Positions 21,730 through 29,589 of a stretch of DNA of 64,000 nucleotides are shown here, in pieces; within the stretch, counting starts at the first letter, position 1; each line of letters opens with the position of its first letter. Below the pieces are notes generated by a model, which was given only the letters and a program-made list of their open reading frames with translations, was not told the DNA's origin and did not search any database. The position numbers and the translations under genes are program-made. Origin of the DNA: Albugo candida (Eukaryota); contig JBDOQK010000036.1 of assembly GCA_040437565.1 (NCBI GenBank), forward strand, positions 248,001-312,000. The letters are read 5' to 3'.

Positions 21730-24700
21730 ATGAAGTCTTTGATCGGTAATACTGACGAGCGTTTGGGCTGTGAAGAATCCAATTCGCATGAAAACGCCTC
21801 ATTTGATCGGAAAAAAGTGCTCCAAACTCACATTCTCGAACTTCTCAGAGAGTTTCGCAGGCACCGAAATTCGATTGAAGCGTTTGTCGCACAAATTCTC
21901 CGCAGAAATGCGCCAATGGACCAGGTCGCGGGAAACGCTATCGCTCCGATTGAGGAAGGCTTCCATTCTATCAAAGCGATCATCGATCTCATGGTACTGA
22001 CAGCGCAGCGTCTCGGTGAACAAGTCTTTGAGAAGATCAGTTTGCAGATTTGCAAAAGTATCAAAAGCAAAGTTTTTTCCGAAGAAGCAAATCAAATTCG
22101 ATTCGCGTCGCTGTACAAAATGGAATTGCGTCGGCACGTCACTATCGAAAACATTCAGCAAGAGATTTTGTGCAACAAACAAATGACTCACCGATTCGAT
22201 GTACGCTCTCAACGATCAGCTTTGATGGAGGCGTCAACGGATCGATCGATATCCGGGTCGAAATACCAGTTTAGGCTTCACGCGCTGGACCGAGTGCTTC
22301 AGGCGGCCAGAAGACCTCATTGCGTGACTTTGCGATATGTCGAAGAGACAAAGCAATTCATATACTCATCCGATGCGAGCGATGTGGCTGAGGTCCAATC
22401 TTTACAGAATCGGGTCGATATGCTTGCAAAGAAAACGGACTTATCTCACCAATGGATTCAATCGAGATGCGGCCTCAAGAAAAAGACTTTGATCTTCAAG
22501 AAGCTCGTGCAAATTCTGTCCACGATACCGCTGTTTTCTGTGTCGATACGACATTCTTCGACTATAGAACATGATCCATCCTCCTTTCTGGATGACGTTG
22601 TAGAATTCGCATTAGCAGCTTCGTATGCATCGCTTCCTCTGGGCTCTCCTCTTTGTTTAAAGGATCATCCAATGCAAGAGCTTTTTGTCATCGTTGAAGG
22701 CGCTATAGGAGGTGAATCAGCTTCATCTTTGTATCTTGGTGAAATGGCTTTCCTCGATCCCGACGCGTTGTGGTCACAAACATGGCGAGTGACTTCCCCA
22801 ATGGCCACAGTCTTCTCACTGACCAGTAAGGACTTTGACAAGGTATTGACTCGACTACTTGGCTTGGGCAATGAGCGAGTTTCAAAACGTGACTCTCCAC
22901 TTCTATCGACCCACCATTCTCCACGAGCAAGCTCCAGACGCTTATCCATTACGGCTCGTACTCATAAGGGCAAGAAACTCAGCAAAATCGATTTGTACAA
23001 AGCGAATCGGAACATTTGGGATGATAAAGTATCTGTGAAAAAAGAAAATAATCTTCATCTTCCGTTGTTGGATGCGCCAAAAAAGCACGAATTCGAGGCG
23101 GTCAATGCATCGGAGGCAGAGGCTCACAAGCCGATTCAATTGCCAATAGCATCCGATGTACAGTATTACCCGAGCTTTAAAGTGAGCACATATCGCACTG
23201 AAGAAGACCAATTGCGCCACGAAAGCGATATGTCCCTGTTTGATCGTCCGTTTCTGCGATCGATGCCTCCAATCGCCTTTCCAGTGCTCAAAATGGACGA
23301 TATTGTGGCAGATGCATTGATGCCAATTCTCCCCGAAACGGAATGTGCCGCATTTTCCAGCTCCGATACCAATGTGTACGCGTCACTATTCACGCAACCA
23401 AATATACTCCGAAAGGATGTTCTTCGCGGACTTCTCGAGCAATCTGATTATAAGAACGACAGTATGACGACCTCACCTCACGGAGACTCCAGTGATACGG
23501 AGGCTTCACCTTTCGGAGACGCTCAGATCCAACAAAGCGAACAGATCGTGTCTCAAGGCGAATCATCATCTCCAAGTCAAACAAAGGCACATGAAATGAC
23601 TTCTTTCAATACTCTTCAAAATCATTGGAATCGTAGACGATCAACCATCGGTAAACGTGAGCAATCCAGGTCTACTAACGATACATCATCTGCAAAGACT
23701 TCTCCAGATTGTCGTCCTGGTGCACTTTTCGATCCAATAGAAAATCGAGACTCCTTGGTGTCTACCAGACGTTCGAGTTTGGACGACGAATTCTCTGAAG
23801 GTAGTCATTCCCATGAAAATTCCGAATTTAATGCTTCGGTCTCGTTTGCGGTCGCACACCGAATCCATCGACTTATTGTAAACAAACAGCGACAGCCACT
23901 GACCGAGCCGCCGGGTGATCGGACGGATACACTCTCATCCTCATCCTTGGTACAGGACACTGCCACGCTCAATACTGAAGCTTCCCTTCCAATACCATTA
24001 AAAATGGACCTTCAGCACCGCATGACAAAAGTCTTTGACCAGTTGGGAATGACCGCCAAACAGAAGCTAATTGTTGTGCTGAAATACACATCTGGCTCTC
24101 TTTCGTATCAATTTGCCGATGCTGTGGCGTGTTGGGAACAAGCGACTTATCTCATTATGGAACGAGAGATTCTGATGGCCAAAGTCGATCAATTTGAGTA
24201 TAATGCCAGTGACCCAAGACGATTCTTCAAAACGCTGTCGACGAAGCGGCTTGAAGAAGAGAGAGAGCGGAAGAAAATCATTCACCAACTCCATCAGCTC
24301 ACAATTGCTTGCGATAAAGCGCTTTTGAATTTGGAAAAGTTTGGAGACGAATCCCTTTTGTGCTTTAACGGAGAAGAACGTTCGTATCGGGAGAAATTGA
24401 GCAAGGATTATACTGAAGTTTTATACGCCGGCGAGCAGAAACGCTTGTCTGTGATCAATGATACGAAGGACGCCACGGTACTGGCGCATAATGAAGTCCA
24501 AGTGCGCGGGAAAGACGAAGAACAGCGAGTAACCGCTCCATCCCTGGCAGGTCCTCGTCTGGAACTACCAAGCCTCATCTCTGCAACAAGTGCTCGAAAT
24601 TGGGATCAAAATAAGGTCCTTCTTCGATTTCGGCGACAAGCAAATTTGTTGCGCACACGGCGACAAATGGAAGCAAAGAAAGCAGACACTGCGCATACTT

Positions 24701-24807
24701 TGAGCTCTGCGCTCTCCAGTCGGACACTTGCCGGCAAATTCCAAGTATCGACGTCCACTGAACGTCGAATTCCGACACCACCGTCTCGGAATAACAAACA
24801 GTTATGA
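21730..24807 (+). CDS. cNMP-binding-like domain + CCDC87-like C-terminal domain protein; start may lie upstream
   Basis: cNMP-like LFVIVEG..YLGEMAFL..VFSLTSKDFDKVL. The C-terminal LQHRM..LKY..WEQA..ERE..FEYNASDPRRFF..EEERER..YREKL..DYTEVLY resembles CCDC87. Confidence 0.7.
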   Translation: MKSLIGNTDERLGCEESNSHENASFDRKKVLQTHILELLREFRRHRNSIEAFVAQILRRNAPMDQVAGNAIAPIEEGFHSIKAIIDLMVLTAQRLGEQVFEKISLQICKSIKSKVFSEEANQIRFASLYKMELRRHVTIENIQQEILCNKQMTHRFDVRSQRSALMEASTDRSISGSKYQFRLHALDRVLQAARRPHCVTLRYVEETKQFIYSSDASDVAEVQSLQNRVDMLAKKTDLSHQWIQSRCGLKKKTLIFKKLVQILSTIPLFSVSIRHSSTIEHDPSSFLDDVVEFALAASYASLPLGSPLCLKDHPMQELFVIVEGAIGGESASSLYLGEMAFLDPDALWSQTWRVTSPMATVFSLTSKDFDKVLTRLLGLGNERVSKRDSPLLSTHHSPRASSRRLSITARTHKGKKLSKIDLYKANRNIWDDKVSVKKENNLHLPLLDAPKKHEFEAVNASEAEAHKPIQLPIASDVQYYPSFKVSTYRTEEDQLRHESDMSLFDRPFLRSMPPIAFPVLKMDDIVADALMPILPETECAAFSSSDTNVYASLFTQPNILRKDVLRGLLEQSDYKNDSMTTSPHGDSSDTEASPFGDAQIQQSEQIVSQGESSSPSQTKAHEMTSFNTLQNHWNRRRSTIGKREQSRSTNDTSSAKTSPDCRPGALFDPIENRDSLVSTRRSSLDDEFSEGSHSHENSEFNASVSFAVAHRIHRLIVNKQRQPLTEPPGDRTDTLSSSSLVQDTATLNTEASLPIPLKMDLQHRMTKVFDQLGMTAKQKLIVVLKYTSGSLSYQFADAVACWEQATYLIMEREILMAKVDQFEYNASDPRRFFKTLSTKRLEEERERKKIIHQLHQLTIACDKALLNLEKFGDESLLCFNGEERSYREKLSKDYTEVLYAGEQKRLSVINDTKDATVLAHNEVQVRGKDEEQRVTAPSLAGPRLELPSLISATSARNWDQNKVLLRFRRQANLLRTRRQMEAKKADTAHTLSSALSSRTLAGKFQVSTSTERRIPTPPSRNNKQL

Positions 24808-25067
24808 TTGAGCATGAGAGTCGTTTAAGAGCGAGAGAAGCGGCGGATTGTGCGCCTAGTGTGATGTATATGGCAAGAGGAAGACAGGGAACAGCTGAGT
24901 TATTTAGCTGGTGGATCTGTTCGCGTAGAGCGTTCAAACGATCACATAGAATACAATCTTATTTAAAGTGAAATATGATCTTACGCAACTTTGCAGCTAC
25001 AAATTCACGCTTTTATTGGCTGATATGGAATTGTACCGTGATCGTGGCACACTGTTCCCTTATTATA

Positions 25068-27116
25068 ATGACAGAGCCAAACGTCTCAACAACGTCGGCG
25101 TTGGACGCCCGCGCTCTTAAGACCGCTGAAAACACACCGGAAGCGATCTCAGAGCATTTGAAGATAACGAATGGAAAAGTACGCACACGATTCCCACCGG
25201 AACCGAACGGATATCTCCATATTGGTCATGCAAAGTCTTTAAATATGAACTTTCACGAAGCTTTTGAAAAACTGCAAATTCCAAAGCATCAGCGCGAAAC
25301 GATATTCCGCTACGACGACACTAATCCTGAAGCAGAGAGCAAGGAGTATATTGACGCCATCGCAGCAAATCTCGAATGGCTCGGCTACATTCCCGCTAAA
25401 GTCACATACAGCTCCGATTACTTTACTCAGTTATATCAACTAGCTATCCAGTTAATTCAATATGGGAAAGCGTACGTTTGCAACCAATCGAAGGAAGAAA
25501 TCGAGCAATCACGCATTTGTTTGCAGCACTTTCACGCATCTTCACTCGCTAAAACGGAGGAAAATGTACCAGCTGGAGCTATCTCACCGTGCCGCAATCG
25601 CTCGATCGAGCAGAATCTCTTGGAATTCAAGAAAATGCGCGCTGGGCTCTATGACGAAGGAAAAGCTTGTCTCCGAATGAAAATGGACCTCACATCGCCA
25701 AATCCGAATTTGTGGGATCAAGTGGCCTACCGCATCAAATACGTCGCGCATCCGCATGCTGGCAAAGCGTGGTGTATCTATCCGACATACGATTACACGC
25801 ATTGTATCGTCGATGCTCTGGAGCACATTGATTATTCTATTTGCACGCTCGAGTTTGAGACGCGACGGGAGTCGTATTACTGGCTTTTGGACGCTCTGAA
25901 TCTCTATAAACCCAAAGTGTACGAGTTTGCGAGACTGGCGGTCACGCATATGGTCATGAGTAAGCGAAAGCTTCTCAAGCTTGTGGTTGGTGGCAAGGTA
26001 CGAGGCTGGAATGATCCACGATTGGCCACACTGAATGGACTAAAACGTAGAGGATTCACACCTGCAATCATCCGACAATTCTGTCAAGAAATTGGTGTCA
26101 CGCGAGTGCAATCAACCATTCAGATTGAAAAGCTGTATGCAGTGGCTCGGGATGCATTTGGAATGGAGTGTAAGCGAGTAATGGCCGTCCTGGACCCCGT
26201 CGAAGTTGTCATCTCTAATTTTGACCTGGCGACTTCTGAATTGGTTCGATGTAGAGCTCCCGATTATCCTCAAGACGAGCAGCGTGATGGCGGAAGTGCG
26301 TACCACACTGTCGAGCTAACTCGAGTCATCTACTTAGACCGAAGCGATATTCGCCTGGACGACCATAAATCCTTTTACGGAGTTGCTCCAGGAAAACATA
26401 TTCGCTTAAAGTATGCGTACAACTTCAAATGTGCAAGAATCGAAACGGAAAAAGACTCCAATCGCATCGTTCGCGTGTACGGAGAGATCGACTGGGATAT
26501 GAATGCAAAACCGCCTAAAGGAATCATGACGTGGGTGCCTCGGAATTCCCCGATCGTACAAGTTCGGATCTACACACATTTGTTCAAAGTCCCGGATTTA
26601 TCAAGTGCTGCCATCAACGGAACAAATTGGGAAGAATTGGTCGACACAAATGGATCCGAACATGTGTTTGCGAATGCTCGAATTGACCCAGAATCGATTG
26701 CAAAGAATTTAAAACCAGACGTTGCGGTTCAGTTTGAGCGTGTTGGGTACTATGTCCTGGATGAAGACTCTACTGAGACTCGACTCGTCTTGAATCAAAT
26801 CGTTCCGCTTCGTGAAGGTGGGAACTCTAGTCATGAGTCACCGTCGGGTTCGTTCACAAATGAGCAGAAAAACACGAGTCGAAAGGATCAACAAGCACAA
26901 CAACTTGCTGCCAAAGCTGACAAAGCAAAAGTACCTCCACACGAATTCTTCAGACAGCAAACCGAGCTCTATTCAGCATTCAGTTCCGACGGGATGCCGA
27001 CTCACGATGCAGCTGGCAATGTACTCACAAAAAGTCAGCTCAAAAAGCTTAAGAAAGAATTTGAAAAGCAGAAAAGACTCCACGATCATTATCTTCAGCA
27101 AGGAAATCAAGCGTAA
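25068..27116 (+). CDS. QARS: Glutaminyl-tRNA synthetase (ORF open from ATG 24975)
   Basis: TRFPPEPNGYLHIGHAK, YDDTNPE, WCIYPTYDYTH, ICTLEFE, MSKRKL, IRLKYAY and QFERVGYY. Confidence 0.96.
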   Translation: MTEPNVSTTSALDARALKTAENTPEAISEHLKITNGKVRTRFPPEPNGYLHIGHAKSLNMNFHEAFEKLQIPKHQRETIFRYDDTNPEAESKEYIDAIAANLEWLGYIPAKVTYSSDYFTQLYQLAIQLIQYGKAYVCNQSKEEIEQSRICLQHFHASSLAKTEENVPAGAISPCRNRSIEQNLLEFKKMRAGLYDEGKACLRMKMDLTSPNPNLWDQVAYRIKYVAHPHAGKAWCIYPTYDYTHCIVDALEHIDYSICTLEFETRRESYYWLLDALNLYKPKVYEFARLAVTHMVMSKRKLLKLVVGGKVRGWNDPRLATLNGLKRRGFTPAIIRQFCQEIGVTRVQSTIQIEKLYAVARDAFGMECKRVMAVLDPVEVVISNFDLATSELVRCRAPDYPQDEQRDGGSAYHTVELTRVIYLDRSDIRLDDHKSFYGVAPGKHIRLKYAYNFKCARIETEKDSNRIVRVYGEIDWDMNAKPPKGIMTWVPRNSPIVQVRIYTHLFKVPDLSSAAINGTNWEELVDTNGSEHVFANARIDPESIAKNLKPDVAVQFERVGYYVLDEDSTETRLVLNQIVPLREGGNSSHESPSGSFTNEQKNTSRKDQQAQQLAAKADKAKVPPHEFFRQQTELYSAFSSDGMPTHDAAGNVLTKSQLKKLKKEFEKQKRLHDHYLQQGNQA

Positions 27117-27208
27117 TTGAAGACGTTTTGGCATGTGGAAATGAACACGACAGCCTCATTGCGATTTCATTGTATACGGCGAAGGAGAGAGCATATTTTC
27201 CAAAATGC

Positions 27209-29352
27209 TCATTTTCGCACAATTTCTTCCTTTTGTGATAGCACTTTATCGTGTGTGGTGGTCTGAATGATGTACTCGTTCTCATTCTCGCTGTCGTAGC
27301 CGTCTAAACACGCAATGTACCCAGCTCTCTGTTCCATGATCGCTTGTGCGCGTTTCTGTACCAACTTATCATGCTCCTGCAGCATTTCCCGCTTGTGGCT
27401 TTGCTTCTTCTCATTGCGCTCTCGATCTTTCATCCGATCCATTTCATTGTATTTTCGCTGATACTTTTTCAAATTCCGCACAACTTCAGCATACTCTTTG
27501 TCAGTCAATAAGGAGCGAGGACGTGGCCGCCAGAGGAACTGATAAAAAGACTTTTTCTTCTCTTCCAGCAACAGTTTGCCTTGGAAGCTCCACAGCATAA
27601 AGCCATTATCCATTTGGTGTTTGTAATATGAGCTCTAAAGAGAAAACGATTCAGCGCCTGGAGACTTTTAATGAGTTATTTGATACTTACATCGATCGGC
27701 TGACAGACTGCAGTCATCACAACACGGCCGGAAGGATCCCAGTCGACGTGCGTGCACTTGAAATGCTCTTGAATGGTGATGCTTTGCTGCTCATCCGTAT
27801 CCCAGAATTCCAGCTTCCCATTCATTTCGCCCAAACCTGCCAGAACGATATTGTTACCGTGAGGAGACCAGTACACGTGACTGCATTGCTTTGCGGTCAG
27901 CGTGTACAACAACGTGATCTCGTTGCTTCGTGCACCACCTTTCATGTCGTAGAAAGAGATGCTGGCTCGTGTTGGTGATTCTCCATGAATGATCACAAAT
28001 CGAGAGCCTTTGGGCTCCCACGCAAACGCGATCACAGGATCCTTCATTTCCAGCATTTCTACGGGTATTAGCGGTTCTTTGATCCGAAAAAGCTCGAAAT
28101 TGGTGTACAAAGTCTTCTTCGACTTTGAATGACGCGTCACTTTTACACAGAGAAAAGTTCCATTCGGATGCCAATGCAATTTGCAATCGCTAACGTTGAA
28201 TAAATTTTGCTGTCGGAGCTCTTTTCGGGATGGTAGTTCGACTAATGAGACTCGAGCGGGTACATTATCTTTCTCTGGGGCCCAATACGCAAGAATCGGG
28301 TCTGTGGGAGACCAAAGAAAGTCGTGAATACCATCAGCTTTCAAAGATTTCTTTTGGAGTAATTGCATGGATGGAAGCTCGTGAACGCTGATGACATCCT
28401 TTCCTCTTCGTGTGATTAATCGATCATCACAGCTCCATTTAAAAGGCGTTCGGAGTCCTTGAACAACTTCATTCGTTTCGGCTTTCGTGATGCCTGCAGG
28501 AAACGCTCGTAAAATTTTAGATGAGGCAATATCCCAAACGATAATTGCTCGTTCAGCATCCGTTTCACTCACTGTGGTGAGATATTTCTCCTCTGGGGAG
28601 AAAATACACCGCTTCACGTGCTTGTGTGCGAATCGAGCCACCTTTTGATACCCTTCTCCAGCCCAAAGCGCGATACCCTGAGGATGAAAAGTTGCCAAAT
28701 AAGTGCCTTGCGGAGACCATAAGAGGTACTGAGAGCACCATTGTTTTCCATTTGTTTTCTCACGTGCACCGTCATAATCAAGCGTAATCTCTCCTTTATC
28801 CATCCAGTAGATCTCTGACTCGGTACCGTGACGAAGGGCAAACATATCTCGACGTTCTGGGTCTCGAAGCCAGGCCTTTAGGTCTTTCGGCTCTTTAAAC
28901 TCTTCGATCGGGGGATCCTCATACTTTTCGGGCAAGGAAGCGTACTTTTTTAGGTCTGAGTAAGCGTTTACGTGCAGCGTGTGCGTCTTGTCAAGTGCAA
29001 ATTTATGCAACGTCCGTATCGCATTGGCCGCCAAGTCTGCATCTTCATACGCGAGGAAGGCGAAGCCATTCGTTTTTTCATTGGATGTAATTGGCATTTG
29101 AAGATCAACGATTGGTCCAATCTGAGAGAATATTTTACGAATCACGTTGCATAATTTTGCATGCTTGCTGGTATCGACGACCGGAAGCCCACCGACAACA
29201 ATACAGTTTGAAAAGTCGTTGCAAAACTCCTTCTCGCTCACTTTGATTGCATCTACGTCCTCATTGCTATCGTCTTCACTAAGGTAGTCAGCATACTGCT
29301 GTGCTTCTTTCTCAATCTCAGCAATCTGTTCCTCCAGTGACGCTAATCCCAT
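27209..29352 (-). CDS. EIF3B: Translation initiation factor 3 subunit B
   Basis: RRM (IVVGGLPVV..GFAFLAYE..LDKTH), WD/beta-propeller (WSPQGTYLATFHPQG, NLFNVSDCKLHW, FAWEPKG, WDPSGR) and QFLWRPRP. One intron at about 27636-27690. Confidence 0.96.
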
Positions 29353-29589
29353 ATTTTCGAATTTGATTGGCAGCAATGGAACGGTTTCTATTAAGTAGAT
29401 TACGGTGTTTCAACACTCAAATCAATAATTTGCTTATTTACAAATTGCTCTAACAACATGGATGAGATTTATCACAAAGTGTATTCCTTNNNNNNNNNNN
29501 NNNNNNNNNNNNNNNNNNNNNNNNNNNNNNNNNNNNNNNNNNNNNNNNNNNNNNNNNNNNNNNNNNNNNNNNNNNNNNNNNNNNNNNNN

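Follow-up and report, generated by a model that had tools for sequence, protein, structure and literature searches.

The DNA analyzed here, hereafter the window, is a stretch of 64,000 nucleotides from the oomycete Albugo candida (contig JBDOQK010000036.1, positions 248,001 to 312,000), and its gene for glutaminyl-tRNA synthetase (GlnRS) forms the subject of this report. An original prediction, made by a model from the sequence alone, had claimed that this GlnRS lacks the eukaryotic N-terminal domain and instead carries, at its C-terminus, an appended domain of the type found on cysteinyl-tRNA synthetase (CysRS). Published work is cited below from excerpts of the respective papers.

The GlnRS Gene and Its Core

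Domains and motifs of the GlnRS open reading frame (ORF) are collected in Table 1. Among proteins with a name, F0W6T7, the glutamine--tRNA ligase of Albugo laibachii Nc14, stands closest (88% identity over the whole length), and the closest relatives carry the same source name, glutamine--tRNA ligase. The second signature motif, VMSKR, we take to be a KMSKS-type motif. Both anticodon-binding families, PF03950 and PF20974, pass the Pfam cut-offs, and the corresponding beta-rich segments are modeled at high predicted local distance difference test (pLDDT) values. On this domain content, the gene is predicted to encode a class Ib GlnRS of the cytosolic type.

Table 1. Features of the A. candida GlnRS gene (positions in the window).
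Feature	Position	Strand	Details
Glutaminyl-tRNA synthetase ORF	24975..27116	+	Unbroken, 713 codons + stop
Likely start codon, ORF Met32 (MTEPNV...)	25068..25070	+	Matches M1 of homologues
Class I (Glu/Gln) catalytic domain, PF00749	25176..26150	+	ORF residues 68-392; Pfam E 1.5e-93
HIGH signature motif	25218..25229	+	ORF residues 82-85; H51, G53 and H54 invariant in 76-homologue alignment
VMSKR, second signature motif	25953..25967	+	ORF residues 327-331; S298, K299 and R300 invariant in 76-homologue alignment
First anticodon-binding beta-barrel, PF03950	26169..26483	+	ORF residues 399-503; Pfam E 5.4e-18
Second anticodon-binding beta-barrel, PF20974	26523..26762	+	ORF residues 517-596; Pfam E 9e-11
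Linker, Ser/Asn/Glu-rich, about 20 residues	26817..26876	+	ORF residues 615-634; pLDDT < 50 at 584-603 (Met32 numbering)
Appended C-terminal module, 80 residues	26874..27113	+	Homologous to eukaryotic CysRS C-terminal extensions
Tail helix 1, charged, RKDQQAQQLAAKADKAK	26880..26930	+	DSSP H3-19 of tail model
Tail helix 2, PHEFFRQ, conserved PP.E.F motif	26937..26957	+	DSSP H22-28
Beta-hairpin, YSAF...GMPTHD	26970..27008	+	DSSP E33-36 and E42-45
Long Lys-rich C-terminal helix, KSQLKKLKKEFEKQKRLHDHYLQQGNQ	27030..27110	+	DSSP H53-79

Translation probably starts at Met32 of the ORF: this residue is aligned with M1 of the homologues and is conserved at a level of at least 90% in the alignment of 76 homologues, and the ESM Atlas record of the protein begins at residue 32. 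Counted from Met32, the catalytic domain starts after 37 residues and HIGH after 51, in line with the original prediction, which had placed the catalytic core about 40 residues after the Met. The 31 in-frame codons ahead of Met32 (24975-25067) begin with ATG and encode a hydrophobic sequence (MILRNFAATNSRFYWLIWNCTVIVAHCSLII) that has no counterpart in the 76 aligned homologues; they could be an untranslated leader or provide an alternative start.

A C-Terminal Module Found on Two Synthetases

Downstream of the second barrel and the linker, the GlnRS frame encodes the peptide KVPPHEFFRQQTELYSAFSSDGMPTHDAAGNVLTKSQLKKLKKEFEKQKRLHDHYL at 26928-27095, followed by QQGNQA and the stop codon. The original prediction had quoted this peptide exactly and in frame, while the position from which it let the feature start, 26860, is one base out of frame (codons begin at 26859 and 26862). 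When the tail (residues 625-713) was searched against 5.77e9 proteins, two Albugo GlnRSs and three proteins with CysRS Pfam domains were matched, the latter at E-values of 1.1e-12, 3.0e-12, and 1.2e-6; CysRS C-termini thus appeared as the matches outside GlnRS, as had been expected. In BLASTP comparisons, the 80-residue tail is 49% identical to Phytophthora CysRS (E 9e-19) and 51% identical to dugong CysRS (E 2e-20), these two alignments spanning 69-75 residues.

A profile made from five tails (A1) was then used to search among longer proteins, and gave 241 matches at E <= 0.01 among the 7999 candidates scored. The best 120 of the 241 comprise 32 proteins with GlnRS domains, 66 with CysRS domains, and 22 without Pfam domains, most of which are short C-terminal fragments of GlnRS or CysRS. 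Named CysRSs among the matches listed come from cnidarians, flatworms, molluscs, insects, birds, and mammals, and from the oomycetes Phytophthora nicotianae and Lagenidium; one matched cluster includes the CysRS of Aureococcus. Phytophthora and Nothophytophthora carry the module on both CysRS and GlnRS.

Across the GlnRS and CysRS tails, a P, a Y, a G, P-T-H, two K, and a Q are invariant. Where a listed match has the G.PTH motif, this motif is placed 29-59 residues ahead of the C-terminus, with the exception of P0089, a model in which CysRS is fused to ribosomal protein L6, and P0007, which has three copies. This invariant pattern, Y...G.PTH...K..K....Q, makes a compositional origin of the similarity very unlikely. 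Judged from these alignments, the likeness to CysRS that the original prediction had described is real homology, the GlnRS tail and the C-terminal extension of eukaryotic CysRS being one module present on two synthetases.

No Pfam family was assigned to the tail of the window protein or to those of three full-length CysRSs, the best E-value being 0.061, below the cut-off. A phmmer search of the PDB with the tail gave 0 matches at E <= 10. Viral contigs and prokaryote genomes (185,579 species, one genome per species) gave only pattern matches, none of which was confirmed by tblastn. In the ESM Atlas, the best score with the tail was 0.84, to unnamed clusters and below the level of a lead.

Could the fusion be an artefact, produced by a chimeric assembly or by a gene model that reads through, or could the resemblance have come about by chance or convergence? 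The original prediction had named long reads showing a chimeric assembly as one of the findings that would overturn it. The ORF is single and unbroken, and contigs of four other public runs matched to 26300-27250 contain no insertions, deletions, or joints. One of them (X16, 4261 nt) covers the whole of this stretch with 17 differences in 951 bases (98% identical), and the other three cover the core-tail region in part (X12, 26300-27037; X3, 26721-27250; X18, 26718-26976). The same layout occurs in 117 of the 120 best related GlnRSs listed, from many genera. Because the contigs of other runs and the orthologues agree, a chimera of assembly or gene model is ruled out, and with E-values of 1e-12 database-wide and of about 1e-19 in pairwise comparison, an artefact of any of these kinds is hardly conceivable.

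Predicted Structure and Charge of the Tail

An AlphaFold2 model of the 682-residue protein, computed with 76 homologues, has a mean pLDDT of 89.2, and the linker is its sole internal segment of low confidence. The tail reaches a pLDDT of 93-95 in this full-length model and of 86.3 when folded alone with 29 sequences of both families. It is therefore predicted to be an autonomous mini-domain, modeled with confidence, on a flexible tether. A predicted complex of two tail copies scored 0.01, without controls, a value that tips the balance to neither side.

The module consists of two helices, a beta-hairpin, and a long C-terminal helix (Table 1). The hairpin forms the most conserved core of the module, with Y33, G40, P42, T43, and H44 invariant in an alignment of tails (A3). 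In the same alignment, P22 of helix 2 is invariant and F26 is conserved at a level of at least 90%, and K57, K61, and Q66 of the C-terminal helix are invariant. In the numbering of the ORF, these constant residues include Tyr666, Gly673, Pro675-Thr676-His677, Lys690, and Lys694. The module is basic, with an isoelectric point of about 9.4-9.5 vs. 7.25 for the core. In the stretch of 30 residues that begins just ahead of the last helix and covers most of it, the median net charge is +5 for GlnRS tails (132 sequences) and +4 for those of CysRS (66 sequences).

No fold match to the tail was found in the PDB by Foldseek (best E 3.7 among 32 matches). The Ino80 HSA-region chains that came up when A3 was searched against the PDB (E 0.0011-0.061) were rejected as a matter of chance or composition: the match consists of a charged stretch and "QTELYSHF", with a high bias score.

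Distribution of the Tail-Bearing GlnRS

The original prediction had proposed a survey of GlnRS architectures in stramenopiles, and this was made on the best 120 full-length GlnRS relatives listed, obtained from word-indexed searches. These have a median length of 681 residues. The 117 tails divide into 110 with P[TS]H and seven in which the His is replaced. HIGH was found in 109 of the 120, its median distance from the start being 44 residues; in two of them, P0195 and P0140 (a fusion with an RRM protein), this distance exceeds 100 residues. The three listed relatives without the tail are P0125, which has a different C-terminus, P0145, in which the hairpin is cut out, and P0173, which has an aberrant end.

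All named sources among the listed tail-bearing GlnRSs are stramenopiles. The oomycetes are represented by Albugo, Pythium, Globisporangium, Phytophthora, Nothophytophthora, Bremia, Peronospora, Plasmopara, Hyaloperonospora, Aphanomyces, Saprolegnia, Achlya, and Thraustotheca; the brown algae by Ectocarpus and Pylaiella; other ochrophytes by Chrysoparadoxa, the xanthophyte Tribonema, and a transcript labeled Chromulina (a chrysophyte); and the diatoms by Fistulifera, Nitzschia, Conticribra, and Pseudo-nitzschia. These genera all belong to the stramenopiles. The layout thus appears, among the named sources listed, to be a stramenopile-wide trait rather than a peculiarity of Albugo.

In diatoms, two GlnRS loci have been described, one cytosolic and one plastid (PMC4494062). 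The tail-bearing diatom GlnRSs have HIGH at 41-57 residues, a distance that leaves no room for a targeting presequence, and for this reason are assigned to the cytosolic type. That diatom survey does not treat C-termini; the term "C-terminal" occurs in it 0 times.

The seven tails with a replaced His belong to P0154, P0156, P0157, P0161, P0174, P0190, and P0200, and read PTK, PTT, PTQ, PLT, or PTV at this place. Since they keep the remaining module, the His is not indispensable in every lineage.

Some gene models are apparently wrong around the module. P0145, a GlnRS model of 622 residues from Saprolegnia parasitica, skips the hairpin in what looks like a wrongly called intron; P0125 has received a foreign C-terminus; and the RRM fusion of P0140 and the CysRS-L6 fusion of P0089 are found in oomycete models.

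Absence of the N-Terminal Domain

The GatB-like N-terminal domain (PF04558/PF04557) gave no Pfam match in the window GlnRS at E <= 1, and neither family is listed for any of the 120 best GlnRS relatives listed. Furthermore, the preceding ORF on the same strand stops at 24807, only 167 nt ahead of the first ATG of the GlnRS ORF, and hence leaves no room for an upstream exon encoding such a domain. The N-terminal domain of about 190-260 residues that characterizes canonical eukaryotic GlnRS is thus missing from the window protein, as had been claimed. An ancestral presence of this domain in eukaryotic GlnRS has been argued for, and trypanosomatids and some fungi are known to lack it (PMC3333875). 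The same paper reports a link between this domain and U73, the discriminator base, of tRNA-Gln. The stramenopile GlnRSs add a case where its loss coincides with the gain of another module.

Canonical GlnRSs, such as yeast Gln4 and human QARS1, have the same catalytic core and barrels, and likewise an appended domain outside the bacterial-type core. However, their N-terminal domain measures 187-259 residues and sits at the opposite end, while the window tail has about 80 residues and bears no relation to it, be it in sequence or in predicted fold. GlnRS of Deinococcus radiodurans resembles the window GlnRS in having a helper domain C-terminal to the core (PMC3333875); this domain is said to be similar to GatB (GatB/YqeY-like), whereas the window tail has no confirmed prokaryote relative in the genomes searched and no fold match in the PDB. 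Trypanosomatid and some Eurotiomycete GlnRSs lack the N-terminal domain in the same way as the window GlnRS (PMC3333875), but Leishmania GlnRS, with 570 residues (PMC3532385), is too short to hold the linker and tail of about 100 residues.

The closest known counterpart of the tail is the end of UNE-C2, the C-terminal extension of human CARS1. Both show the motif order PP.E.F - YS.FD..G.PTHD..G..LSK...KKLKK....Q.KL, placed about 40 residues from the C-terminus and after a charged helical stretch, although only the last 75-80 or so of the 178 residues of UNE-C2 are common with the GlnRS tail. The carriers differ as well: GlnRS is a class Ib enzyme with two anticodon-binding beta-barrels, CysRS has a helical anticodon-binding domain, and the tRNAs they serve have different anticodons.

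The N-terminal extensions of the class IIb enzymes LysRS, AspRS, and AsnRS (specific for lysine, aspartate, and asparagine) offer a further parallel in that a short basic amphipathic helix sits on a flexible tether, as in the window tail. These basic extensions bind tRNA. Such a role is partly supported in PMC3532385. The A1 profile, searched against the PDB, gave a single match, the 120-residue Asparagine--tRNA ligase chain 8fa3_A, in which the tail helix is aligned over 29 residues at a non-significant E-value of 0.11; 8fa3 is absent from the 32 Foldseek matches. The likeness to class IIb extensions is therefore treated as an analogy only, not as family membership.

Possible Roles of the Tail

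The tail would, by analogy, serve as a tethered tRNA-binding helper of GlnRS, and we consider this role somewhat more probable than all others together. The C-terminal extension of CARS1 is called important for anticodon recognition, with reference to Liu et al. (PMC12542199), and human CARS1 without UNE-C2 (residues 571-748) loses aminoacylation activity (PMC7254149). According to PMC3333875, yeast GlnRS deprived of its N-terminal domain has a Km for tRNA increased 30-fold; the same paper describes another kind of appended domain at the C-terminus of D. radiodurans GlnRS. The yeast and Deinococcus cases suggest that a tRNA handle, appended at one end or the other, is of benefit to GlnRS cores, and together with the two observations on CARS1 and the likeness of the Lys-rich helix to tethered basic helices known from other synthetases they point to tRNA as the ligand of the tail.

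In the stramenopile layout, a core of bacterial length is followed by a disordered linker of about 20 residues and a basic mini-domain of about 80 residues, whose Lys-rich helix and conserved hairpin would contact tRNA-Gln in cis. These contacts would raise the affinity for tRNA (lower Km) and perhaps help to place the anticodon arm, a help comparable to that given by the N-terminal domain in yeast GlnRS. The anticodon is GCA in tRNA-Cys and CUG or UUG in tRNA-Gln. Because the module serves such unrelated anticodons, its contact is probably with the backbone or shape of tRNA and not with the anticodon bases.

The fusion would have arisen once, early in stramenopiles or before, by domain shuffling between the two synthetase genes. 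In a tail tree made by a quick method (221 rows, 64 columns; P0125, P0145, and P0173, which have no motif, and P0002, a near-copy of the window protein, were excluded), GlnRS and CysRS tails are intermingled and 116 of 215 forks are open. With so few columns, weak support, and mixed families, donor and direction of the transfer are not readable from this tree; the much wider spread of the module on CysRS, which bears it in both animals and stramenopiles, rather favors CysRS as its source.

Several points weigh against a tRNA-binding tail. The human CysRS extension that was tested has 178 residues, of which the module covers only the last 75 or so, and its published effects may therefore not map to the module. 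A non-synthetase protein, P0241, contains four tandem copies of the module, each with a hairpin and an Arg-rich helix, which fits a generic binding unit and not specifically one for tRNA. Finally, bacterial and trypanosomatid GlnRSs work without an appended domain, so that catalysis does not necessarily depend on the tail.

The repeats of P0241 are also of a kind often shown by docking modules. Such a module could link GlnRS and CysRS to each other or to a common partner, for example, a multi-synthetase scaffold, elongation factor 1, or the ribosome, and thereby channel charged tRNA. Its presence on both synthetases of the same organisms (Phytophthora and Nothophytophthora) and its form, a folded unit on a flexible leash, are in favor of docking, as is the fact that the appended GST-like and WHEP domains are common to several synthetase families (AARS Online Table 2). 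However, no partner emerged from the analysis, a strongly basic and conserved helix is a feature rather to be expected of a nucleic-acid binder, and the published role of the CysRS extension concerns recognition of the tRNA anticodon (PMC12542199). A docking function is thus considered unlikely.

Lys-rich stretches of eukaryotic synthetases double as nuclear localization signals. The basic run at the end of the tail (KKLKKEFEKQKR) looks like the classical signals of this kind, and it might be supposed that it acts mainly in localization, e.g., nuclear import, with the hairpin as structural support. This is improbable, since an import signal needs no conserved fold of 60-80 residues with invariant Tyr, Gly, and Pro-Thr-His, and the hairpin, not the basic run, is the most conserved part.

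Wider Meaning of the Module

The unit PP-YS.FD-G.PTHD-KKLKK is seen on CysRS of many eukaryotes, on stramenopile GlnRS, and in 3-4 tandem copies outside the synthetases. Tentatively, it might be a portable, unnamed eukaryotic domain family which, in stramenopiles, took over the job of the ancestral, GatB-like tRNA sensor of GlnRS, an idea to which we give distinctly less weight than to tRNA binding itself. If so, an appended tRNA-handling domain of a eukaryotic synthetase could give way to a fold that is unrelated to it and sits at the other terminus, and the CysRS extension would be a general handle for tRNA, or for a common partner, and not a device specific for tRNA-Cys.

Appended domains are the main difference between eukaryotic and bacterial synthetases, and few of them, such as the GST-like, WHEP, and EMAPII domains, are catalogued as common to several families. 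In the excerpt of the AARS Online table of domains common to at least two families, no tail of CysRS and GlnRS is entered. No description of the present GlnRS layout was found in the searchable literature, supplements aside; Supplementary Figures S4 and S5 of PMC3333875 chart the N-terminal domain across eukaryotes, and may already show stramenopiles without it. The layout joins two known parts in a new way, across a major eukaryotic group. It offers a natural experiment in which the function of the poorly understood CysRS extension can be studied on another enzyme, one that serves a different tRNA, and the tail is a simple sequence marker for stramenopile GlnRS.

The CysRS extension also holds a disease variant, p.Tyr698Cys of CARS1, found in a patient (PMC12542199). 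The invariant Tyr of the module is Tyr666 of the window ORF, encoded at 26970-26972. Tyr698 would presumably be this same residue, if Tyr781 of P0073, a mammalian orthologue of 831 residues, is shifted by an assumed difference of 83 residues from the isoform of 748.

The suggestion in the original prediction that the tail could be a lineage-specific drug-target feature fared less well. The layout is common to the named stramenopile GlnRSs listed and the module is present on animal CysRS as well, so that it is not pathogen-specific, and it is an appended flexible part, not an active site. In addition, GlnRSs without the N-terminal domain are already known from trypanosomatids and some fungi (PMC3333875). 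The case is weak and its practical value doubtful.

Other Architectures and Neighboring Genes

P0241 (714 residues; ENA, from a contig of 6335 nt) is an Arg/Glu-rich protein with four tandem hairpin cores (F..DPR[YF]S.[FW]DADGVPTHDADGNPLS), and P0007 (461 residues; ENA) has three. Neither matches a Pfam family, and each copy is followed by an Arg-rich, not a Lys-rich, helix. Judged from these motifs, the tandem repeats in non-synthetases represent a third architecture of the module. The last copy of P0007 is identical to the tail of P0099, which belongs to the Aureococcus-type CysRS cluster, and for this reason P0007 may be a chimeric short contig. In P0097 (307 residues; JGI), about 230 N-terminal residues without a Pfam family are followed by a linker and tail of the GlnRS type; either the module occurs here in one more architecture, or the gene model is mis-joined.

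Within the window, no tRNA genes were found. The ORF upstream of GlnRS on the + strand (21730..24807, 1025 codons) is Ser-rich and looks partly disordered, and has no Pfam family at E <= 0.01. On the minus strand, at 27209-29376, lies an eIF3B-like gene with an RRM and an eIF2A-type beta-propeller (E 4.4e-50), which is convergent with GlnRS, 92 nt separating the two stop codons. It is split into two ORFs (27676-29376 and 27209-27613) by a 62-nt gap that would fit either a short intron or a change of frame.

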